Assembly: GCA_030611085.1 (NCBI GenBank)
Contig: JAUWQI010000003.1
Span: forward strand, 4,056 to 68,055
Source of the DNA: Dehalococcoidia bacterium
Lineage (GTDB): Bacteria > Chloroflexota > Dehalococcoidia > GIF9 > AB-539-J10
DNA length: 64,000 nucleotides
Reading direction: 5' to 3'
Positions 2,999 through 63,214 of this stretch are shown here, piece by piece. How positions within the stretch are numbered: position 1 is the stretch's first letter; each line of letters opens with the position of its first letter. The notes under the pieces were generated by a model that saw only the letters and a program-made list of their open reading frames with translations, was not told where the DNA came from and searched no databases. Position numbers and translations under genes: made by a program.

Positions 2999-4365
2999 GA
3001 ACCGTCAAACCTTGCCCCAGGTTGGAGGGGGAGATTATCCTGCCTGGCGATAAGTCTATCTCCCATCGAGCTGTCATACTTAATAGCTTAGCGAGAGGTA
3101 AAGCCGAAATCGGCAATTTTGCCCCAGGCAAAGATTGCTTGGCTACAGTTAGATGTCTGCGGGCTCTGGGAGTGGAAATTGAGAAGAAGAGCAAGTTTGG
3201 AAACCTTCCCGCTAAGGTCATTCTGAGCACTCAACAAACCCAACAAACTCAAGGAACTCTTGCCGTTTCGGGAACTGGTGACTATGGTCTCAAGGAAGCA
3301 GACAGAGTGCTCAATGCCGGAGACAGCGGCACCACTATGCGTCTTCTCTGTGGTCTCCTTTCCAGCCAGCCTTTTATGTCTGTTATCACTGGTGATGCCT
3401 CCCTTCGCTCCCGTCCTATGGGAAGGTTAATTAAGCCACTGAGGTCCATGGGCGCTGAAATTTGGGGAAGAGGTGAGGATTCCTTTGCCCCTTTGGTAAT
3501 TAGGGGTAGGGAACTGCATGGCATAGATTTTACCTTGTCCATTCCCAGTGCTCAGGTAAAATCGGCAATTTTATTAGCCGGACTTTTCGCTCAGGGCAAC
3601 ACTGTATTACACCAGCCAATTCCTTCGCGAGACCACACTGAAAGGATGCTTAAACAAATGGGTGTTAGGATAGAATGCGAAGGAGATTCGATTTCCTTGA
3701 CGCCTTTGAGTAATCCCTTATCTCCTCTCAGCTTTCGTGTCCCTGGCGATATTAGCTCGGCAGCTTACTTTCTAGTTGCCGGAGCTATTCATCCCAATGC
3801 CAGGATTATCCTGAGAGATTGCGGCATCAACCCTACGCGAACTGGAATCATAGATGTTCTTATAGCTATGGGAGCTAAGCTTGAAATAGAGAATGAGAGA
3901 TGGGAAGCTAATGAACTCCTGGCTGATATTGTGGTAGAATCTAGTGAGCTAAAGGGAATTGAGATTGGTGGTGGTAGTATCCCTCGCCTCATTGATGAGA
4001 TTCCCGTATTAGCTGTAGCTGGCTGTGTGGCTAAAGGCAAAACTGTTATCAGAGATGCTGGTGAGTTACGAGTGAAGGAATCAGATAGGATTGCTGCTGT
4101 ATCACAAGAGCTTTCTCGATTAGGTGCTGAAGTTGAGGAATTACCCGATGGCATGGTTATCCATGGAGGGGAATTTTTATCGGGGGCGGAGGTTGATAGT
4201 CATAAGGACCATCGTTTGGCAATGAGTCTTGCTATAGCTGGGTTGATAGCTAAGGGAGAGACAACTATCGCCCAGGCTCAATCAGCAGAAATCTCCTATC
4301 CTGCCTTCTGGCAGGATTTGGTTTCCCTTGTCCCTCAAGCATGTCATTCTGAGGGAGCGAAGTGA
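2977..4365 (+). CDS. aroA: 3-phosphoshikimate 1-carboxyvinyltransferase (EPSP synthase)
   Basis: 462 aa with LPGDKSISHRA, GDSGTTMRLL, RVKESDRI and DHRLAMS motifs. The C-terminal ACHSEGAK and the stop codon are supplied by a family A repeat. Confidence 0.9.
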   Translation: MAKQDTIRTVKPCPRLEGEIILPGDKSISHRAVILNSLARGKAEIGNFAPGKDCLATVRCLRALGVEIEKKSKFGNLPAKVILSTQQTQQTQGTLAVSGTGDYGLKEADRVLNAGDSGTTMRLLCGLLSSQPFMSVITGDASLRSRPMGRLIKPLRSMGAEIWGRGEDSFAPLVIRGRELHGIDFTLSIPSAQVKSAILLAGLFAQGNTVLHQPIPSRDHTERMLKQMGVRIECEGDSISLTPLSNPLSPLSFRVPGDISSAAYFLVAGAIHPNARIILRDCGINPTRTGIIDVLIAMGAKLEIENERWEANELLADIVVESSELKGIEIGGGSIPRLIDEIPVLAVAGCVAKGKTVIRDAGELRVKESDRIAAVSQELSRLGAEVEELPDGMVIHGGEFLSGAEVDSHKDHRLAMSLAIAGLIAKGETTIAQAQSAEISYPAFWQDLVSLVPQACHSEGAK

Positions 4366-5690: not shown

Positions 5691-6382
5691 CTTTGCCAGG
5701 GCAGCTTTATAAGTTGCAGCAGATTGATTTAGAACTTAAGGGAAGGCAACAAGAGTTAAACGAGATTGAAAATCAGCTAAATGACAATAAGGCTTTGGTC
5801 GCTGCTGAATCCAAACTTGCCTCACAAAAAGAGCAACTGGCAGGGGTGAAAAAAGAGCAAAAGAACTCTGAATGGGAGTTAGATGACCTCCAGGAGAGGG
5901 TCAGCAAGCTCGGTGGCAAGCTCTATAGTGGCACGACTAAGAATCCCAAGGAACTAGTTAACCTTGAAAGTGAAGTCAAGAGCCTTAAGAGCAAAATCAG
6001 CAAGAAAGAAGACGAACTATTGGAGCTAATGAGCCAGGTGGAAGGGATGGAAGCTGAGGTAAAGGCTAGTACTGGTGAGTTTGAGCGGGTGAAGCGAGAA
6101 TGGCAACAGGGACAGGAGAATCTTGGGCGAAGGAAAACTGAAGTTGAAGCTGCGATTGTTAAGCTTAGCCTAGCCCGTCACAAACTGGCGCAACAAATTG
6201 ATTCCGCAGCACTGGAACTCTATGAGCAAATTGGGCTAACAAGAAAGCCTGCTGTAGCTAAAGTAGAGCAGGGAAGATGTCAGGGATGCTATATCACCTT
6301 ACCCATAAGCCAATGGCAAAAGGCTAAAGCTGGTGATTTAATCCAATGCAATAGCTGTGGCAGGATATTGTATGTAGAATAG
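5687..6382 (+). CDS. COG1579-type coiled-coil protein with C-terminal C4 zinc ribbon
   Basis: ATGA overlap with the gmk stop. Long coiled coil, then CQGCYITLP...CNSCGRILY. Confidence 0.65.
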   Translation: MTLPGQLYKLQQIDLELKGRQQELNEIENQLNDNKALVAAESKLASQKEQLAGVKKEQKNSEWELDDLQERVSKLGGKLYSGTTKNPKELVNLESEVKSLKSKISKKEDELLELMSQVEGMEAEVKASTGEFERVKREWQQGQENLGRRKTEVEAAIVKLSLARHKLAQQIDSAALELYEQIGLTRKPAVAKVEQGRCQGCYITLPISQWQKAKAGDLIQCNSCGRILYVE

Positions 6383-6584
6383 CAGGGATGTGTGGAACGT
6401 CCTCCGAAGCTAATCACAGAGAGCAGATTAAATTCTTGCAAAATTTTTACTCCAGGCAGAGTCCCATTTTCCCGGTTTAGTAATATATAGGTAAGACCAA
6501 ACTGTTATGTTGGACTTAAAATTCATCGAATCTAGGATTAGGGGACATGATGTAATCCAGATAGATAGGAGACACACATAAATT

Positions 6585-7200: not shown

Positions 7201-7260
7201 TGTCATTCTGAGCCCCAGGCGAAGAATCTCAAAGATTCTTCACTCCGCTTCAGAATAACA
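7201..7260. repeat. family A repeat, complete hairpin form
   Basis: tgtcattctgagc..cgaagaatctc aaa gattcttcac..gcttcagaataaca is a self-complementary unit of about 60 bp. Confidence 0.8.
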
Positions 7261-7631: not shown

Positions 7632-9164
7632 ATGAAAAGAAGACCTTTTTTGTTAATCGTGGTGGCTCTCATAATGAGCCTCTTGTGTGTGGCTGTGCCG
7701 AGTCCGGTGGCGGCTCAATCTGTGAGCCTGAACCTCGCCAAGATTGAAAAGACGGACAAAGGCTTTGTGGTGAAAGGGACAGTGACGGGGAGCAACCTCA
7801 ATCCAGAGGGCCAGCTCAATATATCTAACACAGTGAGTGTAATCGCCGACATCAAGGAAGGCCCCGATTCCGTGTATCCAAAACTCCCGAAGGGCTGGTA
7901 TGTGCGCCCGCCAGCAGGGGCTGAGACACCCTATACCGAAGGTAGCGGTCCAGGGGGCACCATGACCAAGAAAGAATATTATGGGGTGGGCATAATCTCT
8001 GTGACCATCGCCAGCTTCGGCATAGGAGAGAGTCCAGCGGAATTTGAGGGCACCATCCCGCTGGAATACGCGGGAAAGACGCTGAGAATCCGAGCCAGCC
8101 TCAAACATTATTGGTCAGGAACCTGGCCCGCCATGACATTCCATCACGATACCGGCTATGAAGGGAAACTCGAGGGCGTAGCACCACTGGGTGAAGTGAT
8201 GTCTTTGGAAGATATTCTAAAGGCGTACAAGGCATTTGGCACAAGCGCACATACTTGGCCGGACGGAACGACAGACAAGAAAGCTTTAACAGGGCCAGCG
8301 TGGAATGGTGCCTCGGCCAATTTCTGGTGTAGTTTGGGTTATACTGAATACTGTCGATTCACCTGTACAGCCATGCAGTATAAGGTCTTGTGGTTTCTGA
8401 ATGACCTTGAACGTGCAGGTAAGCTAACAGGTTGGGAATACAGTGCAGTTTATGGTGTATGTCCGCCTTATCCAGAGCACAATGCTGTTGTTATATGGGA
8501 AAAGGGAAAGGACTGGAAAAGGGTTGGCATTATTCTGGATCCCCATGGAAAACAGAAGCCACACTACTGTAGTACAGAAACTTCGATTTTTCCTTGGAAG
8601 CTCGATGAAGATATATTTGGTGTCTATAGTGGCACGAAAACACCGTGGAATCCTACGGGCGAAAAGAAGCCCACTCGCTTCAATCTCAAGGATAACCGTG
8701 GTGCCATCTTCTGCCCAGTGGACGTGCTCATCGTCAATTCAGCGGGTCAACGTCTGGGTGTACTTCCAAACGGTGATAAGGTTTCAGAATTTAAGCCTAC
8801 AGATTCATATTACTGGGAGGATGAGAAGGGCGATAAACAGTGGTTTTTCTCCTTGCCTGATGATACCTATGAGGTAAGCATCACTGGAACCGGCTCGGGA
8901 AAGTTTAACCTTCTGGCATACACTCCAGGCGAGGATGTGCACGACTACGGGGAAAACCCTATAGCTGCTGGTGAGCAAGCTATCTTAACCATGGAGCCAG
9001 AGAAAGGTGACGAACTCACCCTTGCGGACGGGAGCAAGGTAACACCAAAATCTATAAAGGTGGGTGAGCCAGATTCTGCCTCTGAAGGCAGTTTGCTTGA
9101 TAAGTTCAAGAGTCTAATAGATTCCCTCATCACCTGGGTTAAGTCCATATTCCAGGCAAAATGA
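7632..9164 (+). CDS. secreted protein with putative transglutaminase-like Cys-His-Asp core and conserved C-terminal amphipathic tail
   Basis: SD GGGAGGAAG and a signal peptide ending VAAQS. The spacing FTCTAMQ...EHNAVVIW...ILDPHG fits the C-H-D order of transglutaminase-like cores. The tail is SLLDKFKSLIDSLITWVKSIFQAK. Confidence 0.6.
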   Translation: MKRRPFLLIVVALIMSLLCVAVPSPVAAQSVSLNLAKIEKTDKGFVVKGTVTGSNLNPEGQLNISNTVSVIADIKEGPDSVYPKLPKGWYVRPPAGAETPYTEGSGPGGTMTKKEYYGVGIISVTIASFGIGESPAEFEGTIPLEYAGKTLRIRASLKHYWSGTWPAMTFHHDTGYEGKLEGVAPLGEVMSLEDILKAYKAFGTSAHTWPDGTTDKKALTGPAWNGASANFWCSLGYTEYCRFTCTAMQYKVLWFLNDLERAGKLTGWEYSAVYGVCPPYPEHNAVVIWEKGKDWKRVGIILDPHGKQKPHYCSTETSIFPWKLDEDIFGVYSGTKTPWNPTGEKKPTRFNLKDNRGAIFCPVDVLIVNSAGQRLGVLPNGDKVSEFKPTDSYYWEDEKGDKQWFFSLPDDTYEVSITGTGSGKFNLLAYTPGEDVHDYGENPIAAGEQAILTMEPEKGDELTLADGSKVTPKSIKVGEPDSASEGSLLDKFKSLIDSLITWVKSIFQAK

Positions 9165-9220
9165 TACAATGCTAGATACTGATGTTATCCTGCCTGGAAT
9201 ACCTGCAGATACAGGAGGTA
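9141..9220 (+). repeat. 80-bp direct repeat copy A (last 8 codons + stop + intergenic + SD)
   Basis: 78/80 identical to 9821-9900 by eye (mismatches at 9191 and 9212). Confidence 0.9.
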
Positions 9221-9226
9221 GAAAGA

Positions 9227-9844
9227 ATGAGAAAAAATGTCGTATTGATGAACATTCTGGTTGTGACGCTTCTCTTTGCCCTGATGCCCGTGGCACTGCC
9301 TGTCGAGGCCAATTCTGAACTTCCAAGTGACTATGCAACGATTAGAGATTGGGACCAGGCACATGAAGCTTTTAGTTTTTCACTAGGGGAAGTTACTTCA
9401 GAAGAAGGAGTTGGCGATTTCTTTATTGCGGACAGAGGAGAGGGCTCCATAATCCATGTCTTTGACTCGCCAGGAATAATTGATATGGGTGATGTACCAC
9501 TTGATGCTATTACAGAGGCGCCGGAATCTGGATATCAGGAAACGGCAAAGCCAATCGAAGGGCATTCTTATACTATGAGGTCGCAGGGGAAATATGGAAA
9601 GATTCGCATTGAGGATATATTCAGTCCACAGCTCCGTTCGGTTACTGAGTATGAGTTTGAATGGGTCTATCAGCCTGACGGAACAAGGAGCTTTGGCGAA
9701 GGTGGCACATCTACAACACAGGGCGATGGTGACTCCCAAGACAAGGAGTCAGATTCTATCTCTGGAGGCAGTCTGCTTGAGAAACTCAAGGGTCTGGCAG
9801 ATTCCTTGGTCAACTGGGTCAAGTCCATATTCCAGGCAAAATGA
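9227..9844 (+). CDS. secreted hypothetical protein sharing the C-terminal tail of the upstream gene
   Basis: Start at ATG 9227 behind SD AGGAGG. Signal peptide ends PVEANS. The tail is SLLEKLKGLADSLVNWVKSIFQAK. Confidence 0.7.
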   Translation: MRKNVVLMNILVVTLLFALMPVALPVEANSELPSDYATIRDWDQAHEAFSFSLGEVTSEEGVGDFFIADRGEGSIIHVFDSPGIIDMGDVPLDAITEAPESGYQETAKPIEGHSYTMRSQGKYGKIRIEDIFSPQLRSVTEYEFEWVYQPDGTRSFGEGGTSTTQGDGDSQDKESDSISGGSLLEKLKGLADSLVNWVKSIFQAK

Positions 9845-25753: not shown

Positions 25754-26149
25754 AGATAAAGGAAGTCTAGCATTGCAAGCTTCAAGCGTCAAAATCCCCA
25801 ATTAAGGTTGTTGGATGCTCTCTATTGAGGGAATCTACTGTGCCACCGTTGCTATAGCAAGCATCTCTCTCTTCCCTTCTATTGCTACAAACTTGCAGTA
25901 AGGCTATCCTATATAGTAGGCTAGATTATAGTAAGTAAATAGGGTTGCAGGCAAGTGTAGCTGAGTTTACCTGCAAAAGTAAAAATGCAAAATGACAGGG
26001 CAAAGGTAAAAGCATTTTTAAGTTTTGAATTTGTTTAGAGCTTAGAAATTAGGAATTAATTAGGGAGGGTGGAGTATCTCTGGAGAGCCTAAATTTGAAC
26101 AGGAAATCGAGATTGAGCTACCTCTCCACAAGGAAGGAGGAAAGCGAAG

Positions 26150-26467
26150 ATGACTATTGAGGCTACAGACCAAAATTTTGACGAAGAGGTGTTAAAATCC
26201 AATTTGCCAGTGCTGGTGGATTTTTGGGCACCCTGGTGTGGTCCCTGTCGGACGGTCTCTCCCCTCGTTGAGAGATTGTCAGAAAGCCATGTGGGCAAAT
26301 TCAAGTTTTGTAAATTGAATGTAGGTGAGGCTCCCCAAGTAGCTATAAAATATCAAATCATGGCTATACCTACGCTAATGTTCTTCAAAGATGGAGAGGT
26401 AGCTGATAGGGTTGTCGGGGCTGTAACTGAAAAAGTTCTCCAAACAAAAATTGAGAGCCTTTTGTAA
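26150..26467 (+). CDS. trxA: thioredoxin
   Basis: 105 aa. VLVDFWAPWCGPCR with SD GGAAGGAGGAAAG upstream. Confidence 0.9.
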   Translation: MTIEATDQNFDEEVLKSNLPVLVDFWAPWCGPCRTVSPLVERLSESHVGKFKFCKLNVGEAPQVAIKYQIMAIPTLMFFKDGEVADRVVGAVTEKVLQTKIESLL

Positions 26468-26483
26468 CAACTAGGTATTCTTT

Positions 26484-27155
26484 ATGGAAGAAATATCTTT
26501 GCCTATTGCCTTTGCTGCAGGGCTGTTATCGTTTCTTTCCCCCTGCGTGCTACCTATGGTACCAGTCTATTTAGCCAACTTGGCTGGCGCCTCCTCCCTG
26601 ACTCTCAAAATCAGCCGTTGGCACATTTTTCTCCATGCTGTTAGCTTTATACTGGGGTTTTCTCTGGTATTTATTGGGTTGGGTGCATCCGCAGGGCTGG
26701 TAGGTGCGGTTGTCCCCGTTAGCTTGCTTCGTAAAATAGCCGGCGTTCTGCTTCTAGTATTCGGAGCCTACTTACTTGCTGCTGTCAAGCTGCCCTGGCT
26801 CAATTATGAGGCGCGTCTCAAACACTCCTTTGGCAGTAACACAGGATACTTACGCTCCATCCTGGTAGGGGCTGTTTTCTCTCTAGCGTGGATGCCTTGC
26901 GTAGGTCCTATACTGGCTGGGATTTTAGCCCTGGCTTCAAGCTCGCAGACAGCATGGCAAGGGGTTCGCCTATTGTCTGCTTACTCGTTAGGGTTGGGGC
27001 TACCCTTTATCGCTGTTGGGCTAGCGCTGGGAGCGGCAACTCCCTTGATGGGATGGCTTAGCCGCCATGCTAACATAATCTTAGTGCTTAGTGGTTTATT
27101 GCTTATAGCAGTAGGTATATTAATGCTTGCCAACATTGTCCATTTCACTTTGTGA
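26484..27155 (+). CDS. ccdA: cytochrome c biogenesis/thiol-disulfide electron transporter CcdA (DsbD family)
   Basis: Six-TM protein with LSFLSPCVLPMVPVYL and a second Cys in WMPCVGP. Confidence 0.8.
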   Translation: MEEISLPIAFAAGLLSFLSPCVLPMVPVYLANLAGASSLTLKISRWHIFLHAVSFILGFSLVFIGLGASAGLVGAVVPVSLLRKIAGVLLLVFGAYLLAAVKLPWLNYEARLKHSFGSNTGYLRSILVGAVFSLAWMPCVGPILAGILALASSSQTAWQGVRLLSAYSLGLGLPFIAVGLALGAATPLMGWLSRHANIILVLSGLLLIAVGILMLANIVHFTL

Positions 27156-27683
27156 ATGTGGAGGATTATTATGTATCGAGGAGAGGTAAAACAACGAACA
27201 ATACTCAGCATGTTAGCTGTCTTTTTAATATTGATTTGTTGTTTTTCCGGATGTGGCCTAAGCGTAGCTCCAAAGGTGGGAGCCTTGGCCCCAGGCTTCA
27301 CACTCCCCACTCTTGATGGGCAGACAGTGAGCTTGGACGAAATGAGGGGACAGCCAGTGGTGCTTAACTTCTGGGCTACATGGTGTAGGCCCTGTTGTAT
27401 GGAAATGCCCTACCTTCAAGAGGCTTTTAACCAAAAGGGGGAGGAAGTAAGGTTTATTGCTATCAACCTGGGAGAGAGTGAAGGAAGAGCTAGAGAGTTT
27501 GCTCAGGATATGGGAATAAGCTTTATTATAGCTCTGGACCAAAATGGAGGGGTGGGGAGTGCCTATAATATCAGGGGCATCCCTACTACTTTCTTCATAG
27601 ATAAGAAAGGGATTATCTGCCATATAAGGGGGGGTGCCTTTGGTAGTGAGGATGAATTGATGGTGTTGTTGGAAGGCTTGTAG
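27156..27683 (+). CDS. TlpA/ResA-family membrane-anchored thiol:disulfide oxidoreductase
   Basis: Carries VVLNFWATWCRPC and GIPTTFFIDKKG. Signal/lipobox-like CCFSGC. The exact start is uncertain. Confidence 0.8.
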   Translation: MWRIIMYRGEVKQRTILSMLAVFLILICCFSGCGLSVAPKVGALAPGFTLPTLDGQTVSLDEMRGQPVVLNFWATWCRPCCMEMPYLQEAFNQKGEEVRFIAINLGESEGRAREFAQDMGISFIIALDQNGGVGSAYNIRGIPTTFFIDKKGIICHIRGGAFGSEDELMVLLEGL

Positions 27684-27725
27684 GCTATCTGGCTAGGATT
27701 GCCATATATTTACCTTTGCCTTCAT

Positions 27726-36205: not shown

Positions 36206-36991
36206 TCAAATTTCAATCCTCCAACCATGAGAATATATGTTGAACCTTTTTGAATCGGCAAATCCTATAAGTGTTATCCTGTATTTATTGGCTTCTTTTA
36301 CAGCTAAGTCTGTGGGTGCAGCGATGCTTATGACTATGGGTATGCCGCAGAAAATTGCTTTCTTTATCGTGGAAGCCGTTTGTCGGCAGGAGGTAACTAG
36401 GAAGCTATCGGATAAATCGATTCCGTCTCTAATTGCCAGACCGATGGCTTTGTCTATGGAGCAATGCCTGCTTATATCCTCGACAAATTTGCCCGAATGG
36501 GCAAACTCAAATTGATTCACTGTAACTCCTTCGAGGTTTTTGCCCTTCGGCAAAATATCTCCACAAATCCCAATAACATGTGTACATCCAGTTTTTCGGA
36601 ACAAGAAACTATTTTTAGCTAAGCATTCTACCGAATAAAAAATCTCTTTGCTGGTTAATTTTTTATTGGACTCGCATGGTTGAGGAGTCTTCAGTAACCC
36701 TTTAACAAATGAAAGCTCAACATTAAATTCATTGTCTGCAATTTTCCTGATCTGGGAGAAGGAAGGATTTATACCCCTTGATGTCAAATTGCCGAGTATC
36801 ATTTCTTCCAGGTCAGTTGAGATACAGTAGAATTTATGGATCTCTCTGTCTATTCTAACAACAACCTCCTCTTCACGGATGACCTCATCCACCTTTTTCT
36901 CAGCACGGGTCTGAAGACCCGTGCCTACGAATATAGGTGTATCATCCTTGGAAACCACAGAGATTTCTATTTCCGAAATTCTTTTTTCCAT
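36206..36991 (-). CDS. fdhD: formate dehydrogenase accessory sulfurtransferase FdhD
   Basis: 261 aa. GCTHVIG, the SCRQTASTIKKAIFCGIPIVISIAAPTDLAV region and LIGFADSKRFNIYS. Confidence 0.85.
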   Translation of the reverse strand: MEKRISEIEISVVSKDDTPIFVGTGLQTRAEKKVDEVIREEEVVVRIDREIHKFYCISTDLEEMILGNLTSRGINPSFSQIRKIADNEFNVELSFVKGLLKTPQPCESNKKLTSKEIFYSVECLAKNSFLFRKTGCTHVIGICGDILPKGKNLEGVTVNQFEFAHSGKFVEDISRHCSIDKAIGLAIRDGIDLSDSFLVTSCRQTASTIKKAIFCGIPIVISIAAPTDLAVKEANKYRITLIGFADSKRFNIYSHGWRIEI

Positions 36992-37335
36992 GATTTATGG
37001 AAGTCCTTTATATCATCTATTATGCACTTGCAGGCATCGAAGGCTGCCCATCTGTGGGACGCTGAAACCGCTACCAGTAAAATGCTTTCTGATACTGGTA
37101 GAAATCCGACTCGATGTATTATTGCAACATCCTCTATATCAAATCTATCAATGGCTCCTTTTTCTATTTCTTTTAGTTTCTGAACGGCGTTCTCATTGTC
37201 CTCGAATTCCAATCCTGAACCTTCGGGGAATTCACGCACAGTGCCCAAATAAGTTAGTATGGCACCTATTCTTGGGCTCTTCATCTTCTTAACTATTTCA
37301 TCGACGGAGAAATCGCCTTTTCTTATCTCAATCAT
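36967..37335 (-). CDS. moaE: molybdopterin synthase catalytic subunit MoaE-like
   Basis: 122 aa. GAILTYLGTVRE, HRVGFLPVSESILLVAVSASHR and FHKSWKKE. Overlaps fdhD by 25 nt. Confidence 0.8.
   Translation of the reverse strand: MIEIRKGDFSVDEIVKKMKSPRIGAILTYLGTVREFPEGSGLEFEDNENAVQKLKEIEKGAIDRFDIEDVAIIHRVGFLPVSESILLVAVSASHRWAAFDACKCIIDDIKDFHKSWKKEFRK
37265..37311. repeat. 47-bp perfect direct repeat, right copy (inside moaE 5' end)
   Basis: cctattcttgggctcttcatcttcttaactatttcatcgacggagaa is identical at 41513-41559. Imperfect similarity extends to 37256-37365. Confidence 0.9.
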
Positions 37336-37487
37336 TTCAGTATATCCCTTTACAATAACATCAACCTCGTGAGATTGCTTCGCCTTCGGCTCACAATGAC
37401 TTAAAAGAACTGCTTGAGCCCTTACCTAAGGGCTAGGACTTATAAGCTTGTTTTAGCCAAAAATCCATATCCTAAAATTGCCTCTTA

Positions 37488-37964
37488 CTATCTACAATCC
37501 TGTAGTATTTCTTCTGAGTGATTCGTTACAAAATTCGTGATGGTCTGTAATTCCTGCTTTGCAGAGGAGCCAAACATCTTCTCTAATCTTTTTGCTTGTA
37601 GAATGTCTTCAATGCGTGGGATAGATTCAGAAGGCGTTTCTGTAATCCACCACTTTATATAATCGAGGATATGGTGTAAATACCAAGCCTTTATGTACTC
37701 CACCCCCTTTTGACGCAAGAATTTTAGCTGGATTTTCCTGGCATATTCTTTATTTCTGCCAGAATCATGCCTCATAAACTGTCCTATAGTAATGTGGGTT
37801 GGTCTGCCTTTACTATAAATTTTTGCATCTGGGTCTCTATCGCAAAAATCTAAGAACTCTTGGCATTTTTGAGGGAAATCGATTATCAGATTAATAAAGA
37901 CAGAGACTTCTTTGGATATTCCCATTTGTTCAGCCCACTTATTGTGGATTTCCCATTTAGGCAT
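37488..37964 (-). CDS. hypothetical His/Asp-rich protein (islet gene 5)
   Basis: Start taken at the ATG behind SD AAGGGGG. Product begins MPKWEIHNKW...RHDSGRN...YLHHILDY. No family recognised. Confidence 0.55.
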   Translation of the reverse strand: MPKWEIHNKWAEQMGISKEVSVFINLIIDFPQKCQEFLDFCDRDPDAKIYSKGRPTHITIGQFMRHDSGRNKEYARKIQLKFLRQKGVEYIKAWYLHHILDYIKWWITETPSESIPRIEDILQAKRLEKMFGSSAKQELQTITNFVTNHSEEILQDCR

Positions 37965-38037
37965 ATCCCACCCCCTTACCCTTCGAGCCAGATATAAGCT
38001 CCATTGCCAAATGCCAAGCATTTGAGCGAGCGAACAC

Positions 38038-38622
38038 TTAAATTTCAATCCTTCTTTCTTTACCTCTACTTAGATATTGACGATATAATTCGTCACCCAC
38101 CCAGCCAATCTCGGCTCCTGCAGCTGTGGATTCAAGCAATATCCACCTACCATTCTCTTCTGGAATCTCCCTTGTATATGCATTTGTTGGTATTTGGGCA
38201 ATATAGTTTGGGCTTACATATGCTTCAACAAATACATGGACTGGAACAAAAACGAGAGCGACCCTAAAACCATTTGCCCGCAGTAAGGTGGCCAGAAGAA
38301 TAGACTTACAATCACAATCTCCAGCACCGACATATATAGTTTCAAGTGCGTCAGCGAAATAGTCTTCATCCCAAGGGTCTGGCATGTAATCGATTTGCTC
38401 AGCAACAAATCTGTATATTTTCTCAATCCTGCATATCTCGTTCATATTGCAGCCTTCCGTCAATTGGGCTGCTATTCTCCTAATTTCAGGAAGTGTGGCA
38501 TCAGACATTATAGTCTTCTTCATTCCTTTCTCTAAGGAAGGTCTTTCCATGGCTTTCTTTACACCATAGCCGACCAAACTAAGCAATAACAAACCTAATA
38601 ACTTCTCATCATCTTTTGGCAT
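38038..38622 (-). CDS. membrane-anchored transglutaminase-like protein (islet gene 4)
   Basis: SD GGAGGG 5 nt upstream and an N-terminal TM helix. GAGDCDCKSILLATLLRANGFRVALVFVPVHVFVEAYV...WILLESTA fits the Cys-His-acid order of transglutaminase-like cores. Confidence 0.6.
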   Translation of the reverse strand: MPKDDEKLLGLLLLSLVGYGVKKAMERPSLEKGMKKTIMSDATLPEIRRIAAQLTEGCNMNEICRIEKIYRFVAEQIDYMPDPWDEDYFADALETIYVGAGDCDCKSILLATLLRANGFRVALVFVPVHVFVEAYVSPNYIAQIPTNAYTREIPEENGRWILLESTAAGAEIGWVGDELYRQYLSRGKERRIEI

Positions 38623-38786
38623 ATTACCCTCCTCTTCTTTATGTTTCAAAGATCGTGCGACAAAGCCAAAGCAACTCTATCCACAATCGTCGCTATCAAT
38701 TTCATATAACATTTTTGCGTTTGTAAAGTGCCGAAGGCATTTGGGCAAGCGAAGCTCATAATGTTCAAAGTTTCTCCCATGTGCCT

Positions 38787-40163
38787 TTATAGCCAAAACT
38801 CCTTTCCACACCTCTCGCAATATTTAGCAGATATCCTATTCGGTTTTCTGCAAAAATTACAATATTTGATATTCTCTGGTATGGGGGCTTCAGGTCCAAA
38901 TATCTTGGTTTCAATTGGAAACTTTGAGCCCTTGATTGCATATTCCAATTGTTTATCATCTGTCTTTGCTACAATGATGCCTCTCACCTGTTTTCCCTTT
39001 GCAAGATTCTCATGAACCCAAGCCATATATTTTTGGATTTGTCCAACCACTTCATAAGACCCGCTGCCTTTCTTCAATTCCACCACCATAAGGTTTTCGT
39101 CTTTGTCTTTGCACAAGATGTCTATAAAACCAACAGAGGTTGGGTATTGCCTTCCCACCACCCCTAAGCCCTCCTCCAATACACCTGGATTTGATACTAT
39201 AGAGTCCTCTATTTCTGATTCTGACACCTCGCTCACCACTTCAGTATCTTCCAAGTCCCCAAGAGCCCACTCATCTTTTACTCGCTCCTTTGCAATTTGA
39301 GAGACCTTGTCGGAAATACCCTCAATCTGAGGAAGCTTCTCTTTATAAGGTTGCATCACATCATATATAAATTTAGGAATTATGAAATCTATGCTGACAT
39401 TGCCATTTGCACTCACGTAAAACACCCAATAGCCAATGCCCAACTTAACTAATTCGTCCCCAAATTGCCAGAAGCTATATTCGTGTTGCTCATATAGAGA
39501 GATTAAATACAAGCCACTGGGACGTGAGATTTTCTTGAATCTGTATTCCTTTAATTCTTGAGCAAACATCACATTGAATAGATATGTCCATTCTTTTGTA
39601 TCAATTTCAAAGTAGGAGATTTCCCCCGTTTCCTCATTTACTCTGATAGGAAAATCCAAAAGCAGTTCGTATTTATCACTATACGACTCATCTCTTGCCC
39701 TGTGTTCTTCAGCCTTATGCAAAGATTCCTGGATTTTTTCTGGGATATAGTTCAATACAAAGGACAGTATTTGCGTATCTAATCCAGAAGAGATTACTTT
39801 AAGCCTTTCCTCTGTGTTTTCAGCTAACATCCTAGAAGTCCTATTCATCAATATTTTATCCAGCGAGTCTGTATCCTCATCATATGTTTCATAGGATAAA
39901 AAATCAGGCATGCTATTTAAAGATTCTATGAATATGTTCATCTTTTCCTTGATTTGTGGGACCAGCAAATTGTGCCTTTTCTGAAGATTCCTCTTGCAAG
40001 TAGTTCCTAACCACTTCTTGAATTCTCTCTCATGCTTATGGTATCCAGTCTTTGACGGCAAGCAATACGAGAAGACCCACAAGATATCCAAAAGCGTGTA
40101 ATCTCTCTTAGCGAGAACAGAACTATCAACGAATTGCTCTATTAAATCTCTATTGTTGTCCAC
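38787..40163 (-). CDS. fusion protein: unknown N-terminal ~330 aa + NucS/DUF91-like PD-(D/E)xK nuclease domain + C-terminal zinc ribbon (islet gene 3)
   Basis: GTG start behind SD GAGGAGG. GFIDILCKDKDENLMVVELKKGSGSYEVVGQIQKYMAWV carries D...ExK and QxxxY. C-terminal CNFC...CERCG. Confidence 0.6.
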   Translation of the reverse strand: MDNNRDLIEQFVDSSVLAKRDYTLLDILWVFSYCLPSKTGYHKHEREFKKWLGTTCKRNLQKRHNLLVPQIKEKMNIFIESLNSMPDFLSYETYDEDTDSLDKILMNRTSRMLAENTEERLKVISSGLDTQILSFVLNYIPEKIQESLHKAEEHRARDESYSDKYELLLDFPIRVNEETGEISYFEIDTKEWTYLFNVMFAQELKEYRFKKISRPSGLYLISLYEQHEYSFWQFGDELVKLGIGYWVFYVSANGNVSIDFIIPKFIYDVMQPYKEKLPQIEGISDKVSQIAKERVKDEWALGDLEDTEVVSEVSESEIEDSIVSNPGVLEEGLGVVGRQYPTSVGFIDILCKDKDENLMVVELKKGSGSYEVVGQIQKYMAWVHENLAKGKQVRGIIVAKTDDKQLEYAIKGSKFPIETKIFGPEAPIPENIKYCNFCRKPNRISAKYCERCGKEFWL

Positions 40164-40209
40164 CTTTAACCTCCTCTCAACTGTCTATAATGAAAAGTGT
40201 CAAGCTGCT

Positions 40210-40983
40210 TCATTTCTGCCTTTTCTCATCTAACAGTCTTTTGATGTCTTCCTCTAAGGCGTCTCCTCTGAGTATCCTTGGAACTAATTCCCCGTTTATC
40301 AAATGCAAAGCTGGCTGAACCTTCTGTAGCAAGCCAGCAACTTCTGGTCCTTCTATCATCTTGACGCTGTCTTTCTGCAAAACACCTATTTTTGTCAGAC
40401 CGCCACAATCGGGAGCTATTTCTATAACTTCGTTTATGGTGTAAGCAGCTACAGCCATCGCTTCATTGACGGTGATGTCCTGAATCCAGAGATTTTTTAG
40501 AAGCATCTCGGCAAAAGCTGCACCAGAACCGACAGTGCCATAGTCCTCCACTGGTTCTACAGTTCCGTCTCCGTGAACAATCCCCGAATAGAACTCGGTC
40601 TCGTTTTCTTCTATAGCTTTGGCACCAAAGACTAAAATAGGGGAAAAGTATTCCCTCTCATCTATATCTAATAATTTCGACCTTTCTATGTTATATTCCT
40701 TGTGCAAAGCCAACACCGTCTTCTCCAAGGTGTCCACGCATTCGTCTTCACTCAGGGTAGAACCTTTCTCACGCCTCTTTTCTTTAAGCGTAAACTTTAT
40801 AGCATCAACAGCTTTGCGTATATGAGCAACTGCTCCTGCACCAGCAACTATGAAGCTGTCATCCAACTGATACATCTTGTTTGCGTTGAGCCTCTTGATG
40901 GGAACTCCCCTGCTGAACTCGACCTGGCTGTCAGATGCAATCACGATACCGTCAACACATTTGATGCTTATAACTATTGTCAT
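40210..40983 (-). CDS. proteasome beta-subunit-like Ntn Thr hydrolase with ~60-aa C-terminal extension (islet gene 2)
   Basis: ATGA overlap with the upstream gene and SD AGGAGGG. MTIVISIKCVDGIVIASDSQ places Thr directly after Met. D17, K(33-35), AGAGAVAH and GSGAAFA blocks are present. Confidence 0.65.
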   Translation of the reverse strand: MTIVISIKCVDGIVIASDSQVEFSRGVPIKRLNANKMYQLDDSFIVAGAGAVAHIRKAVDAIKFTLKEKRREKGSTLSEDECVDTLEKTVLALHKEYNIERSKLLDIDEREYFSPILVFGAKAIEENETEFYSGIVHGDGTVEPVEDYGTVGSGAAFAEMLLKNLWIQDITVNEAMAVAAYTINEVIEIAPDCGGLTKIGVLQKDSVKMIEGPEVAGLLQKVQPALHLINGELVPRILRGDALEEDIKRLLDEKRQK

Positions 40984-41330
40984 TTTGGATTTCCCTCCTG
41001 TAACATTCCTATCATCTCCCAAATCACCTTTTCCTTCACCCGCACATAGGTCTCGTCATCAATACCAAGAGCTTGCCTACAGCTATCACGCATAATACAG
41101 TCTTTGGCAAGCCCGCAGCAGTAACCTATGTTTTTATAACAGGTAACGCTCATTGCTTTCTTTACATCGGCCTTCGTCTTCCTCACTTTTTGGTCTATTT
41201 CCTTTAATGATTCTAATTTCGTAACCAGTCTTTGAAGTCTGCGTTGCTCCCTCTCATCCTCTTCTTCAGAAATAACTTCTTTTGCCTCCAGAATAACCTC
41301 GTCGAAATTCATAATGCCCAGCTTTTCCAT
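40980..41330 (-). CDS. hypothetical coiled-coil protein with C-terminal Cys cluster (islet gene 1)
   Basis: 116 aa with SD AAGGAGGG. Acidic coiled coil, then CYKNIGYCCGLAKDCIMRDSC. Confidence 0.55.
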   Translation of the reverse strand: MEKLGIMNFDEVILEAKEVISEEEDEREQRRLQRLVTKLESLKEIDQKVRKTKADVKKAMSVTCYKNIGYCCGLAKDCIMRDSCRQALGIDDETYVRVKEKVIWEMIGMLQEGNPK

Positions 41331-41395
41331 CTAGATCTCCTTACCCTCCTTCGTCTTAAAGTTCCATTCCCTATCTGATATTGAAAGCTCACTGT

Positions 41396-41424
41396 ATTTT
41401 ATGCTTAGTGAGAGTTTTAGCCAA
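41396..41424 (-). promoter_or_regulatory. candidate sigma70-type promoter of the islet operon
   Basis: On the minus strand the sequence reads TTGGCT-N17-TAAAAT, about 65 nt upstream of the first islet ATG. Sequence pattern only. Confidence 0.3.
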
Positions 41425-41481
41425 GCTTATATCAATGAAAAGGAACATCCTAAAGCTAGAGCCATCATGCTTCTGCAAGCT

Positions 41482-41583
41482 TCAAATGCTAGTTCTCTGC
41501 GATAGTATCGCGCCTATTCTTGGGCTCTTCATCTTCTTAACTATTTCATCGACGGAGAAGTCGTTTCTTCTTATCTCTACCAT
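41482..41583 (-). pseudogene. moaE 5' remnant (first 27 codons, then divergent, stop after 33 aa)
   Basis: MVEIRRNDFSVDEIVKKMKSPRIGAIL|SQRTSI* versus intact MoaE MIEIRKGDFSVDEIVKKMKSPRIGAIL|TYLG. Confidence 0.8.
41513..41559. repeat. 47-bp perfect direct repeat, left copy
   Basis: Identical to 37265-37311. Confidence 0.9.
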
Positions 41584-41842
41584 CTTAGTATTTGCTCCTT
41601 CGGAGAAATCCTACCAGATATCAAAAATCAAAGATAAAATTTTGCGAAGCAAAAAGGGGACTAAATAAGGAACATTCATTTTAGTTTTGCCAAAGGCAAA
41701 TAAAATTACAACTCAAAATGTAAAAAGGCTTTACTAAACTGATTTTTAACTTTTGCTCTGTCATTTTGCATCTTGATTTTTGCTTTTTGACTTTCCTTTA
41801 GTATTTTGAATTTCGTGCTTAGAATTTATCCGTATTTGGTGC

Positions 41843-42790
41843 TTATTTCAGTATGCCTCTCACAATAACATCAACTGCTTCTTCCTCATTTAATCCCCTT
41901 GCCATCAATGTTTGCATTTGCTTCTTATCTATACTGCCGATGGCAGCTTCATGAGTAACCTTCGCCTGCTTATCATTCACATATACCATCGGTATTGCCC
42001 TTGCTATCACTCCTTCTCCATTCACGATTTCGAGGCAGTCAACATGCCCTCGGGCGAAGGGGGCGTTGCCATATGTTTCACCCCGGACTACTGCTTTGGC
42101 ATTATCATTTAATACCAAACGACTTTTTGCCAAACCGCGAGCCTCGGCGCCATCCAGATGGATTTTCTCCACTATACTTATGTCGTCTTCCTTTTTGCCA
42201 GAGACTTTTACCATGAGCTCGCTATTGCTTTTTTCCTCGCCAAAAATCTCAAAATCGTAGTCCAGCATGCCCACGCAGCCTTCAATTAAGACGAAGGTGC
42301 TCTGCCAAACGCCTTTCTTGCCCACCCTGATTTTTGCCTTAGGAATCACCTTAACCCCACCGAATTCTCCATGATAATGAGTTTCATGATAACTAAACTT
42401 GGCATTATCCCCGATATTTATGTCGGCGTTCATCTTATGTATTACGGCGACGGCGTTGGGGAAAATACAATGGGCAATAACATTTACCTCGCTGCCAGCT
42501 TGCGCCTCTACTTTCAATGTGATTTCTTGCAATCCCTCCTGAGGCAAAACGCCAAAACACAAATGGACAGGGTGTTTAATTTTTACCCCTTCCTCCACTA
42601 AGAAATAGATATTAACGCCAGTTTCTGTCTCCTCTGTCTCTACTTTTATTCCCGCAGCCTCGTTAGCGCTGAGGACTTTATTTTTATGGATAACAAGATT
42701 GCCTGCATCCCTGATTTTCAAGGCATTCAGGTTACCACCTGCCTTGCCATAGGCTTCAAGCATTGCTTCATATTCTTTAACAACAATCAT
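41843..42790 (-). CDS. SufB/SufD family Fe-S cluster assembly protein
   Basis: 315 aa beta-helix-type sequence ending KVTHEAAIGSIDKKQMQTLMARGLNEEEAVDVIVRGIL. Adjacent to sufC. Confidence 0.8.
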   Translation of the reverse strand: MIVVKEYEAMLEAYGKAGGNLNALKIRDAGNLVIHKNKVLSANEAAGIKVETEETETGVNIYFLVEEGVKIKHPVHLCFGVLPQEGLQEITLKVEAQAGSEVNVIAHCIFPNAVAVIHKMNADINIGDNAKFSYHETHYHGEFGGVKVIPKAKIRVGKKGVWQSTFVLIEGCVGMLDYDFEIFGEEKSNSELMVKVSGKKEDDISIVEKIHLDGAEARGLAKSRLVLNDNAKAVVRGETYGNAPFARGHVDCLEIVNGEGVIARAIPMVYVNDKQAKVTHEAAIGSIDKKQMQTLMARGLNEEEAVDVIVRGILK

Positions 42791-63143: not shown

Positions 63144-63174
63144 TTGTCATTGTGAGCGGAAGCGAAGCAATCTC
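63144..63174. repeat. family A half-unit variant
   Basis: Sequence is ttgtcattgtgagcggaagcgaagcaatctc. Confidence 0.7.
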
Positions 63175-63214
63175 AAAGTAGGGGAGGAGCTTGTCCCCTC
63201 CCTAAGGAGTTAGT

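Follow-up and report, generated by a model that had tools for sequence, protein, structure and literature searches.

Results

An islet at the sufBD/moaE junction

The DNA analysed is a single stretch of 64 kb, referred to here as the window. On its minus strand, positions 37256-41875 hold an islet, that is, a foreign block of about 4 kb with five genes (g1 to g5), together with the scars at its edges. The G+C content of the islet is 40.7%, whereas the window averages 45.3% (sd 2.1% among windows of this size), which ranks the islet 3rd of 120. The islet neighbours moaE and fdhD likewise have about 40% G+C. Searches with Pfam, PADLOC, PHROGs and NCBIfam found no integrase or transposase in the islet, and none turned up among the other window ORFs scanned. 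The statement of an earlier note on this DNA that the insert carries no recognisable integrase or transposase was borne out. Meanwhile, no recombinase was found in the sister cassettes described below, and a repeat search found no inverted repeats at the cassette ends. In an independent assembly graph, the Logan unitig L001 (4261 bp) corresponds to window positions 37282-41542; these are exactly the ends to be expected, since at k=31 the graph is bound to break at a repeat of 47 nt, which it cannot phase.

Duplicated moaE start and edge scars

The left anchor of the variable region is an intact sufBD gene (41843..42790, minus strand; Pfam SUFBD_core, 1e-23). It is 93% identical in nucleotides to sufBD of the related genome L129, and the homology ends at the stop codon. 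A 250-nt spacer (41592..41842, minus) of small repeated MITE/REP-like pieces follows, and these pieces match the sufC-sufBD spacer of L129 in both orientations as well as window positions 25973-26011, 989-1022 and 2085-2118. At the other side of the islet lies an intact moaE (copy B; 36967..37343 including a -8 leader, minus; Pfam MoaE, 1.6e-29), which is 90.2% identical to L129 moaE along its length.

The start of moaE occurs twice, as the earlier note had claimed, and most other features that it described also lie at the positions it gave. The repeat search returned a direct repeat of 89 nt and 89% identity (37255-37343 in copy B versus 41503-41591); its copies are mismatched at 10 of the 89 positions, and the sequences beyond them are wholly unlike. 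Within this repeat lies an exact core (37265-37311 = 41513-41559, 47/47), the third-longest exact direct repeat in the window; in 20 Markov-1 random windows the longest repeats reached 14-18 nt. The second copy (copy A) is a moaE pseudogene (41467..41591, minus), in which moaE positions -8..+81 (41591-41503, core included) are joined through one extra base to positions 280-314 (41501-41467, 35 nt). Its remnant ORF begins with the ATG at 41583, shifts frame at the join and stops at TGA 41484-41482. The dead remnant of the earlier note therefore stands as regards its stop, but it does not simply diverge after the core, since the next 35 nt are moaE 280-314. This 3' piece belongs to a moaE lineage other than that of the resident gene, being identical to L136 moaE at 31 of 35 positions, versus 22 of 35 for the resident copy, and the 5' part of copy A resembles neither L129 nor L136.

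Directly beyond copy A is a 42-nt relic of a permease-gene terminus (41427..41468, minus), comprising the last ~14 codons and stop of an ArsP_1/YHS-type gene. In the sister contig L007 its counterpart, by alignment, is the 3' end of a permease ORF (1168-2178). The relic forms the left edge of the constant cassette, as homology between the window and L007 begins exactly there. The right edge lies at 37469 (minus), the same base at which the homology to L007 (6393) and L137 (4579) ends. Next comes a spacer (37401..37468, minus) in which direct reading of the sequence showed a perfect palindrome of 18 nt (37417-37434, AGCCCTTAGGTAAGGGCT) with a T-rich run behind it; this is a possible terminator, and the terminator scan of the window did not flag it. 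A REP-like hairpin element follows (37369..37400, minus; GTCATTGTGAGCCGAAGGCGAAGCAATCTCAC). The same element directly follows the sufBD stop in L132-L136, with further copies at window positions ~63146 and ~7202.

Between this element and copy B lies a degenerate relic of the sufBD 3' end (37332..37368, minus), which leads directly into the start codon of moaE (ATGA overlap) and has 14 perfect bases (GTTGATGTTATTGT) and ACTGAAAT in common with the true sufBD end. Because the cassette-free relatives L129 and L136 carry the relic too, in a shorter form of 13-20 nt, it is older than the islet and represents an ancestral overlapping sufBD::moaE junction; L130 has kept a moaE-start relic. Hence the earlier proposal that the whole sufBD-3'/moaE-5' junction was duplicated holds for the presence of the relic, but its sufBD half predates the islet.

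The five genes

The earlier note suggested profile and structure searches for all five proteins. These identified g2, g3 and g4 as the note had read them (Pfam Proteasome; NucS_C plus zinc ribbon; Transglut_core), and left g1 and g5 without a family. As it had also stated, no described defence system was recognised: PADLOC detected no known complete system in the islet. The PADLOC candidate families PDC-S02/S11 match the nuclease domain of g3 only, and the other islet proteins match none.

Upstream of g1, a conserved leader contains a promoter-like site (41396..41424, minus; TTGGCT-17-TAAAAT). L007 has the same leader, and L137 has it in duplicate; promoter matches of this type are not enriched over shuffles. 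The g1 gene (40980..41330, minus) encodes a 116-aa acidic/coiled-coil protein with a cysteine cluster, C-x6-CCG-x4-C-x5-C, and a weak match, below the cut-off, to TIGR03277 (methanogenesis marker 9 domain, E 1.5e-7). Its stop overlaps the start of g2 by 4 nt. It was seen only beside close g2 homologs, and both genes occur together in all close relatives. Such a Cys-rich partner did not turn up in literature searches for proteasome homologs in phage defence.

The g2 gene (40210..40983, minus) encodes a proteasome homolog of 257 aa with an N-terminal Met-Thr (Pfam Proteasome, 57.6 bits). It keeps Thr1, Asp17 and Lys33, and in an alignment T2, D18, K36 and a GSG motif are conserved in 22 homologs. 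PDB matches are to archaeal beta and alpha subunits alike, at ~1e-6. The family is rare and phylogenetically patchy, with 28 clusters among 5.8 billion proteins, from archaea and bacteria. Wider homologs adjoin genes for GmrSD_N, a HerA-like protein, four DNA methylases, an RE endonuclease domain and NYN, and they also neighbour IS6-like and IS1595 transposases.

The 458-aa product of g3 (38787..40163, minus) is a fusion of an N-domain (1-290; helical/mixed, no assigned family), a NucS/EndoMS-type PD-(D/E)xK nuclease (Pfam NucS_C, 1.3e-18) and a C-terminal zinc ribbon. Its AF2 model (pLDDT 83.8) gave Foldseek matches to 2vld/5gke (E 4e-7) for the nuclease domain only, which in this predicted structure superposes on 2vld with an rmsd of 2.3 Å over 111 columns. 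Homologs of g3 are mostly solitary genes, often amid housekeeping genes. The g4 gene (38038..38649, minus) encodes a transglutaminase-like cysteine protease with an N-terminal hydrophobic segment (Transglut_core, 8.8e-9). It is missing in the nearest sister cassette, L137, where g5 directly follows g3, and it was probably inserted later between these two. Finally, g5 (37488..37961, minus) encodes a 157-aa all-alpha protein of an uncharacterised family with ~110 cluster representatives and conserved residues W3, H6, D28, H65-D66, H96 and D100. Its sequence had no match in Pfam or PDB, and its confident AF2 model (pLDDT 95.5) had no Foldseek match in PDB or BFVD. The dN/dS values of 0.11-0.27 across g1 (0.13-0.21), g2 (0.11-0.14), g3 and g5 indicate purifying selection.

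The cassette in related genomes

Related genomes have variable content between the conserved anchors sufBD and NAD kinase. The earlier note proposed to look for empty sites, and empty or otherwise occupied ones were found: the order is sufBD-REP-moaE in L136, which is empty, and sufBD-thiF-moaE in L129, both without the cassette, and in L130/L132 sufBD is followed by a 51-aa gene. The cassette itself was seen in at least four contexts with 82-88% nucleotide identity, and the sister cassettes come from independent assemblies of other samples, L007/L010 (JGI) and L008 and L137 (ENA). In the sister contigs an ArsP-type permease gene precedes it, and the surroundings there include ArsR, SBF, CutA1, thioredoxin and DsbD; in the islet region, metal/redox genes abound (ArsR, ArsP, thioredoxin, DsbD, AhpC).

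In L007 the cassette sits exactly between 174-nt, 95%-identical direct repeats of the permease 3' end, its boundaries coincide with the repeat edges, and what L007 shares with the window is exactly the stretch between the repeats. At the distal end of the repeat the identity drops abruptly from ~98% to ~65%, and element-side sequence provides a new 3' end of the permease ORF. As the flanking repeats differ by site (permease 3' end in L007, moaE 5' end in the window), the sites have no att core in common.

The five genes are a mosaic and not one system. Only g1 and g2 travel together, and a nuclease-type gene, either TmtA-like or NucS-like, stands immediately 3' of this pair in every context seen. 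The third gene is swappable: it is the NucS-type fusion here and a TmtA-like ATPase-nuclease elsewhere (E 5.8e-54 against PADLOC TmtA in L007; L002 also matches TmtA). In L137, a further NucS_C gene separates g1 from g2. The five-gene unit of the earlier note did not survive this comparison, as g3 is mostly solitary, g4 is missing in L137 and g5 is truncated or absent in some other cassettes.

Discussion

A probable recombination-borne cassette

We read the islet as an integrase-less, defence-type cassette that a Dehalococcoidia-like bacterium acquired horizontally, at a recombination hot spot that follows sufBD, and give this reading a probability of roughly 0.55. The anatomy, the presence and absence in relatives, the context swaps, the domain identities and the purifying selection were observed; the order of events, the recombination mechanism and the defence role that follow are our inference. 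Recombination would have moved the cassette, dragging or duplicating pieces of its former neighbours. An earlier residence just downstream of the ArsP-type permease gene would have left the 42-nt relic. Arrival at the sufBD/moaE locus would have brought a second, foreign-type moaE copy truncated at position ~314, which may later have lost positions 82-279 to become the pseudogene. The 47-nt perfect stretch would be a crossover or gene-conversion tract and not a dedicated att core; a perfect core within an old, decaying pseudogene does call for a special explanation such as gene conversion. The sufBD-end relic would simply be an older scar. The dS of ~0.5 between cassette variants speaks against recent hopping.

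The islet is probably a new anti-virus/anti-plasmid module, to judge from gene neighbourhood, that is, guilt by association. Its engine may be the translationally coupled pair of the Cys-rich small protein g1 and the active-site-intact proteasome homolog g2, which is predicted to form rings. This pair may control by proteolysis, or accompany, an interchangeable nuclease effector. In the window this would be g3, the NucS-type fusion, and in the sister cassettes a GHKL-ATPase/NOV_C nuclease resembling TmtA of Tiamat. The transglutaminase-like g4 would be an accessory, as would g5, a putative metal-dependent hydrolase whose fold matched nothing in PDB or BFVD. It should be pointed out that the link between g2 and g3 may be mere adjacency, because g3 homologs often stand alone amid housekeeping genes.

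Alternative explanations

A tentative alternative, which we would not dismiss lightly, is that the islet was integrated in Campbell-like fashion through the host's homologous recombination. Here a circular cassette with a captured host segment (REP, sufBD-end relic, moaE 1-314) would have undergone a single crossover with the chromosomal moaE in the 47-nt stretch. Upstream this would leave a truncated hybrid of moaE, and downstream a restored, working gene; with a 231-nt permease fragment, such an event would yield the L007 arrangement. Both loci fit this geometry, as each has the insert between an intact target gene and a broken copy of it, and in L007 the shared segment is precisely the inter-repeat segment and the identity shift is the expected edge of a crossover or conversion tract. 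Moreover, two features recall L136, namely the 3' piece of copy A and the REP that lies upstream of copy B. However, copy B is L129-like (native) throughout, including the 26 nt before the core, and the 5' part of copy A is like neither relative; therefore the two copies are not clearly the reciprocal hybrids that this model predicts. A prior illegitimate capture of host DNA would be needed as well, and no circular junction was seen. The Campbell-type element of the earlier note, taken as a site-specific one that has a 47-bp att core, rebuilds the moaE 5' end and would be moved by an integrase acting in trans, appears improbable. Islands that target and restore gene ends, such as dusA- and tRNA-specific ones, do exist, and the perfect core in flanking direct repeats with an intact target gene would suit such an element. 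The insertion was indeed horizontally acquired, and the 174-nt geometry of L007 fits. But a recombinase is absent from the islet, the sister cassettes and the window ORFs scanned, the repeat flanking the sister cassettes is unrelated, with no common core, and there is no clean attL, as the upstream copy contains moaE 280-314; the sufBD-end relic, moreover, is older than the islet.

Regarding function, the protease pair and its neighbours might serve proteostasis or metal/redox stress, with the nuclease genes as unrelated neighbours. Because the region is rich in metal/redox genes, a stress role for g1 and the protease is conceivable, and the older home of the cassette directly downstream of the ArsP/YHS permease, the g1 cysteine cluster with its weak methanogenesis-marker match, and the housekeeping surroundings of g3 relatives point the same way. 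This reading is nevertheless unlikely in view of the nuclease-type gene immediately downstream of g1-g2 in every context, the extra NucS_C gene of L137, the restriction-modification genes, GmrSD genes and transposases beside wider g2 homologs, and the patchy phyletic distribution of the g2 family. An assembly artefact, in which the remnant and duplication arose from a chimeric join of strain variants, is the least credible explanation, although the window was assembled from a metagenome, mis-joins classically fall at repeats of such length (47-89 nt), and the k=31 unitig ends at this one. Between the two copies there are 10 mismatches in 89 positions and the sequences that follow are wholly unlike, the cassette recurs between gene-fragment repeats in the independent assemblies (L007/L010, L008, L137), and the internal deletion and permease relic are unlike the product of a chimeric join.

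Comparison with known systems

With HslV, Anbu, BPH and the WPH/ACC and other uncharacterised prokaryotic proteasome homologs (PMC8665760), g2 has in common the fold signature, Thr1/Asp17/Lys33 and a C-terminal helical extension. WPH resembles alpha and beta subunits to about the same degree (Fuchs, Alva & Lupas 2021, PMC8665760); the same is true of g2, which is found in archaea and bacteria. That paper gives WPH no gene-context or functional link, and a term search of its text for 'nuclease', 'defense', 'operon' and 'transposase' returned nothing. Unlike HslV, g2 has no HslU-type ATPase partner, and unlike Anbu it lacks the operon partners ATP-grasp and Alpha-E. The C-terminal domain of g3 resembles the mismatch endonuclease NucS/EndoMS in sequence and predicted structure. 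However, no NucS N-terminal DNA-binding domain is recognisable in g3, which has the 290-aa N-domain and a zinc ribbon, and it scores 79.7 bits against the NucS NCBIfam equivalog, far under the cut-off of 216 bits. The sister third gene matches the N-terminal sacsin/GHKL ATPase part of TmtA, the single gene of Tiamat (PADLOC model), but the match spans only ~570 of 1300-1780 profile positions, and the sister protein (840-850 aa) ends in a NOV_C nuclease domain. In the window, g3 occupies this position.

Genomic islands of the tRNA/tmRNA and dusA types integrate into gene ends and restore them. The islet is similar in its target-gene direct repeats with one intact and one fragmentary copy, as is L007 in that element-side DNA supplies the new permease ORF 3' end. 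It differs in having no tyrosine/serine recombinase, in its long (89-174 nt), imperfect and site-dependent repeats, and in an upstream moaE copy that holds internal gene sequence. Defence islands and hot spots hold exchangeable cassettes between conserved core genes. Compared with these, the islet is very small and lies among metal/redox genes, not known defence systems. It is nonetheless alike in its variable content between the sufBD and NAD kinase anchors, in the effector genes swapped beside a constant module, and in the restriction-modification genes and transposases that neighbour the wider g2 family.

Duplicated sufBD/moaE junction around the islet

The window encodes a bacterial class A RNase P RNA and SelA, so the host is a bacterium. 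An archaeal host, raised by one Thermoplasmata label among the protein names, was ruled out by these two genes, and the nearest SufBD proteins bearing names are from Chloroflexi/Dehalococcoidia.

A repeat search of the window recovered a direct repeat of 89 nt and 89% identity on the two sides of the islet (37255-37343 versus 41503-41591), and its exact core of 47 nt (37265-37311 = 41513-41559) ranks third by length among the exact direct repeats of the window. The longest repeats in 20 Markov-1 randomisations of the window reached only 14-18 nt. Both the duplicated junction with its 47-nt perfect core and the anatomy of the islet were right as described in the earlier note, and Pfam confirmed its gene calls (Proteasome, NucS_C plus zinc ribbon, Transglut_core, MoaE, SUFBD_core and FdhD). 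Every gene involved is encoded on the minus strand. The 4261-bp Logan unitig L001 spans exactly window 37282-41542, and ends at these positions because a k=31 graph must break at the 47-nt repeat. The G+C content of the islet is 40.7%, compared with 45.3% on average in the window (rank 3 of 120 among same-size windows). It is AT-rich as had been noticed, but the flanking moaE and fdhD are equally so. Two other exact direct repeats were observed in the window. The pair at 995-1058/2091-2154 (64 nt) overlaps a small repeated element that recurs in the 250 nt between sufBD and the moaE pseudogene, and the pair at 9141-9190/9821-9870 (50 nt) is located at the ends of two ORFs without a Pfam family (7632-9164 and 9182-9844).

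Variable sufBD locus in relatives

The stretch from sufBD to the NAD-kinase/acetyltransferase/NUDIX block is a mosaic across relatives. In the related contig L129 (SufBD 95% identical in amino acids) the order is sufBD-thiF-moaE-fdhD, while in L130 and L132 a 51-aa gene comes after sufBD, and ArsR/ArsP, thioredoxin, DsbD and other genes lie beyond it. The search for empty sites, which had been proposed as a check, succeeded in L136, where only a 60-nt spacer with a REP-like hairpin separates sufBD from moaE. A sufBD-end-like sequence of 13-20 nt is found just upstream of the moaE ATG in L129 and L136, and a moaE-start relic is kept directly after sufBD in L130. These relics point to an ancestral overlapping sufBD::moaE junction that has been broken open repeatedly. 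A degenerate second sufBD 3' end likewise occurs in the window at 37332-37368, upstream of the intact moaE (36967-37335); it consists of 14 perfect bases plus ACTGAAAT and joins the moaE ATG through an ATGA overlap. As similar sequences occur in the cassette-free L129 and L136, this relic predates the islet.

Other changes were observed in the same region. In L129, the closest relative, a thiF/moeB-like gene lies at the sufBD/moaE junction (1564-2578), with a sufBD-end-like sequence of about 17 nt (AGAGGCATATTGAAAT) repeated just before the moaE ATG; it entered this point independently of the islet. The REP-like hairpin GTCATTGTGAGCCGAAGGCGAAGCAATCTCAC is dispersed, occurring at 37369-37400, about 63146-63175 and about 7202-7231 in the window and just after sufBD in L130-L136. 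It sits exactly at the broken junction in several relatives, and in L136 it is bracketed by a 13-nt duplication (ATATTGAGATGAT / ATATTGACATGAT). Window 25830-27725, a block of about 1.9 kb on the opposite strand that is extra relative to L129, carries genes for a DsbD-type membrane protein and for an AhpC/TSA-thioredoxin-like protein, and is a further indel of the same variable region.

moaE pseudogene and permease relic

The earlier note regarded the moaE copy beside sufBD (copy A; ATG at 41583, stop at 41484-41482) as a dead remnant. It is indeed a real copy of the moaE 5' end, but more of it survives. The 35 nt (41501-41467) following its 27 moaE codons match moaE positions 280-314, with an identity of 31/35 to L136 moaE and only 22/35 to the intact resident moaE (copy B) and to L129. 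Copy A is thus an internally deleted moaE pseudogene that has lost positions 82-279, is cut at about position 314 and is frameshifted. The next 42 nt (41468-41427) form a second relic, whose sequence is homologous to the final codons and the stop of an ArsP_1/YHS permease gene like that of the related contig L007. Between sufBD and copy A, the 250-nt spacer consists of small repeats present elsewhere in the genome and in L129.

Sister cassettes beside a permease gene

Homologs of g2, the proteasome homolog of the islet, form just 28 clusters among 5.8 billion proteins. Every close relative (87-91% amino acid identity) is accompanied by g1, the Cys-rich 116-aa protein. In L007, L008 and L010 the order is full-length permease, g1, g2, a sacsin-ATPase/NOV_C protein of 824-850 aa, a C-terminal fragment of the His/Asp-rich g5, a permease 3' fragment and NAD kinase; the 3' fragment (231 nt) derives from the same permease as the full-length upstream copy. 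The L007 cassette is exactly bounded by 174-nt repeats of 95% identity (1960-2133 and 6397-6570), and the DNA homologous to the window (2137-3360 and 6086-6393) is precisely the segment between them. In L137 the end of an SBF gene and the final 86 nt of the permease precede a Vsr-like gene; then come g1, an additional NucS_C gene, g2, the nuclease fusion g3 (82% nucleotide identity to the window g3), g5 and a permease 3' fragment, without the transglutaminase-like g4. In L002-L006 and L140, g1, g2 and the ATPase/NOV_C gene are found in surroundings that differ again, and no flanking repeats of at least 18 nt were found round the L002-type cassette.

The right edge of the shared DNA falls on the same base in three copies (window 37469, L007 6393, L137 4579). 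Together with the layouts of the sister cassettes, this common edge suggests that the older home of the cassette was downstream of the permease gene. The islet of the window would be a relocated cassette that retains 42 nt of that gene. L137 shows further rearrangement: its leader/promoter region is duplicated (225-301 and 827-903; 77 nt, 84% identity), an extra 159-aa gene with a weak homing-endonuclease/Vsr-like match (299-778) is putatively driven by one leader copy, and a stand-alone NucS_C gene (1227-1721) is inserted between g1 and g2, truncating the g1 C-terminus. In L140, an ORF of 142 aa ahead of g1 (330-758) contains an HTHPxSG...S-x2-D stretch that looks JAB/MPN-like by eye; its assignment as a JAB/MPN metalloprotease was dropped, as Pfam gave no support even at E<=5.

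Movement of the cassette

No recombinase or transposase was matched in the islet in Pfam, PADLOC, NCBIfam or PHROGs, which bears out the earlier observation that no integrase or transposase gene is recognisable, and no recombinase was found in the sister cassettes. The repeat search gave no inverted repeats pairing the two cassette ends. No att core is common to the sites either, the flank being the moaE 5' end in the window and the permease 3' end in L007 and L137. Since every copy lacks a recombinase in or near it, the ends lack inverted repeats and the flanking repeats differ from site to site, the site-specific att model is weak. The interpretation of the islet as an att-mimicking, Campbell-type element was thus an over-reading, the duplicated junction being made up of a pseudogene and an older sufBD relic. 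A transposon was rejected for want of a transposase and of an inverted repeat joining the cassette ends, and a tRNA-linked island because the window contains zero tRNA. A phage or plasmid origin was rejected as well: apart from one distant g2 match, IMG/VR gave essentially no g2 or g5, and g2 is absent from the PLSDB plasmids. PHROG matches of the islet proteins were generic, and the spacers gave no riboswitch or ncRNA match in Rfam even at E<=1.

Two recombination models remain. In the first, a captured host segment would have mediated a Campbell-like single crossover, which agrees with the geometry of both the window and L007 loci, and also with the abrupt drop in identity from about 98% to about 65% at the distal end of the L007 repeat. 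Alternatively, a block transfer could have dragged in a foreign moaE fragment, with later gene conversion making the 47-nt identity; this fits a copy B that is L129-like along its whole length and a copy A whose 5' end is not native-like. In either case the moves are not recent, as synonymous divergence between cassette variants is about 0.5.

Properties of the islet proteins

g2 matched the Pfam Proteasome family (PF00227) with 57.6 bits (cut-off 22.4) and keeps the N-terminal Thr, the Asp17/Lys33 equivalents and the GSG loop of the proteasome/Ntn-hydrolases. Among 22 homologs T2 and S153 are nearly invariant, and D18, K36, G152 and G154 are invariant. Its similarity to archaeal beta (9.9e-7) and alpha (1.3e-6) subunits is about equal (PDB phmmer), NCBIfam matches both, and its C-terminal helical extension is conserved. 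The family is found in archaea and bacteria with a patchy distribution.

g1 overlaps g2 by 4 nt and combines an acidic coiled-coil half with a C-x6-CCG-x4-C-x5-C cluster. Its Cys-rich half (40980-41330, minus strand) gave a sub-threshold match to methanogenesis marker 9 (E 1.5e-7; residues 48-107 aligned to profile positions 48-107 of 109), an NCBIfam hypothetical-equivalog model with no function assigned, for which only incidental mentions were found in the literature. The host of g1 is a bacterium and not a methanogen. Iterative HMM searches gave no g1 partner for distant g2 homologs, g1 being found only beside those of 87-91% identity.

The AF2 model of g3 (pLDDT 83.8) resembles NucS/EndoMS in its C-terminal domain only. 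Bins of ANME, Methanoperedens, Asgard and Dehalococcoidia contain about 80 full-length g3 homologs, often as solitary genes; an obligate g3-g5 pair was rejected, as g5 is missing from solitary g3 loci. The alternative third gene matches PADLOC TmtA of the Tiamat system (E 5.8e-54) and has a NOV_C nuclease domain. The insertion of g4, the transglutaminase-like protease, between g3 and g5 is particular to this copy. With g4 confined to one copy, the third gene swapped and g3 often solitary, the five genes were over-read as one system. Purifying selection acts on g1, g2, g3 and g5 (dN/dS 0.11-0.27).

g5 (37488-37961, minus strand) belongs to a family of about 110 cluster representatives with conserved W3, H6, D28, H65-D66, H96 and D100. 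Its AF2 model is confident (pLDDT 95.5), but Foldseek matched it to nothing in PDB or BFVD, and sequence searches of Pfam and PDB were likewise negative. A P1-nuclease/phospholipase-C-like zinc enzyme, guessed from the W/H/D pattern, was not supported by Foldseek or profile searches. g5 may represent a new metal-hydrolase-like fold.

Possible function of the cassette

Distant g2 homologs (30-50% identity) adjoin GmrSD_N, HerA-like, N6/N4 DNA methylase, RE-endonuclease and NYN genes, and also transposases and DUF5678/retropepsin pairs. A putative conflict or defence role is indicated by these neighbours, by the exchangeable nuclease-type third gene and by the patchy occurrence in archaea and bacteria. 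In PADLOC the nuclease domain of g3 alone gave matches, to the candidate families PDC-S02 and PDC-S11, with no complete defence system in the islet and no match for g2, g4 or g5, and our search of the accessible literature found no paper linking proteasome homologs to phage defence. A stress or metal-related role, suggested by the surrounding genes, is a possible alternative. In the boldest reading, considered unlikely at a probability of 0.2, g1-g2 would be the core of an undescribed immune module, in which a self-compartmentalising g2 with a metal- or Fe-S-binding Cys-rich partner would license interchangeable nucleases (NucS-type or Tiamat-like) by proteolysis; the module would spread with no recombinase of its own, and an exchangeable piece of host gene would direct single-crossover integration and rebuild the target.

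Distant g2 homologs (25-50% identity) repeatedly lie directly by transposases, of IS1595 type in L033, L034, L035 and L037 and with SWIM plus IS240/IS6-like DDE genes in L014, L016, L058 and L062 (Pfam-confirmed for L014 and L037 only, the rest called by eye from ORF translations). Such homologs may travel as passengers of IS-derived elements. The same pair of genes, for a DUF5678 protein and a retropepsin-like aspartyl protease, comes after g2 homologs of 44-48% identity in three independent cases (L013 10716-11545, L015 655-1484, L059 1955-2661; Pfam-confirmed for L013 and L059 only), which links a second protease to the g2 family.

Significance and comparison with known systems

The islet is real and horizontally acquired, and it bears informative scars. 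Most interesting are the undescribed link of a proteasome homolog and its Cys-rich partner with interchangeable defence-type nucleases, the recombinase-free movement leaving long gene-fragment repeats, and g5 as a family that is confidently modelled and yet has no fold match in PDB or BFVD. If the association holds, one of the numerous orphan prokaryotic proteasome homologs would gain its first functional context, and a Thr-protease ring would become linked to defence genes that target nucleic acids. Protease-gated immunity exists elsewhere, and the role proposed for g2 echoes such systems. In addition, an uncultured Dehalococcoidia-like lineage documents the movement of a small cassette without its own recombinase, with long gene-fragment scars that could be mistaken for att sites. 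Structural and biochemical studies of the conserved His/Asp family of g5 would be inexpensive.

Compared with an integrase-dependent integrative island, the islet lacks a recombinase gene and the same att core at independent sites. In contrast to transposons, IS elements and MITEs, it has neither transposase nor terminal inverted repeats, and its duplications are 89-174 nt rather than short. g3 reached 79.7 bits against the NucS/EndoMS cut-off of 216 and shares only the C-terminal domain of that two-domain architecture. The TmtA-like proteins of the sister cassettes match the Tiamat TmtA profile over its N-terminal part only, and the window has no TmtA. As for proteasome-type systems, g2 scored 26-27 bits against HslV cut-offs of 137-158, and the islet encodes no AAA+ protein, so an adjacent HslU ATPase is missing. 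The Anbu operon comprises Anbu peptidase, ATP-grasp, Alpha-E and transglutaminase genes, of which the islet has only the transglutaminase-like one, and this sole match is missing from the nearest sister cassette. Another prokaryotic homolog is the Widespread Proteasome Homolog (WPH; representative WP_040339656.1), described with comparable alpha and beta similarity and from both archaea and bacteria (Fuchs et al. 2021, PMC8665760). The text of that article contains none of the words nuclease, defense and operon and gives WPH no gene-context link. In its likeness to both subunit types, its archaeal and bacterial spread and its C-terminal helical extension, g2 agrees with the published description of the uncharacterised WPH/ACC homologs, of which it is a candidate member.
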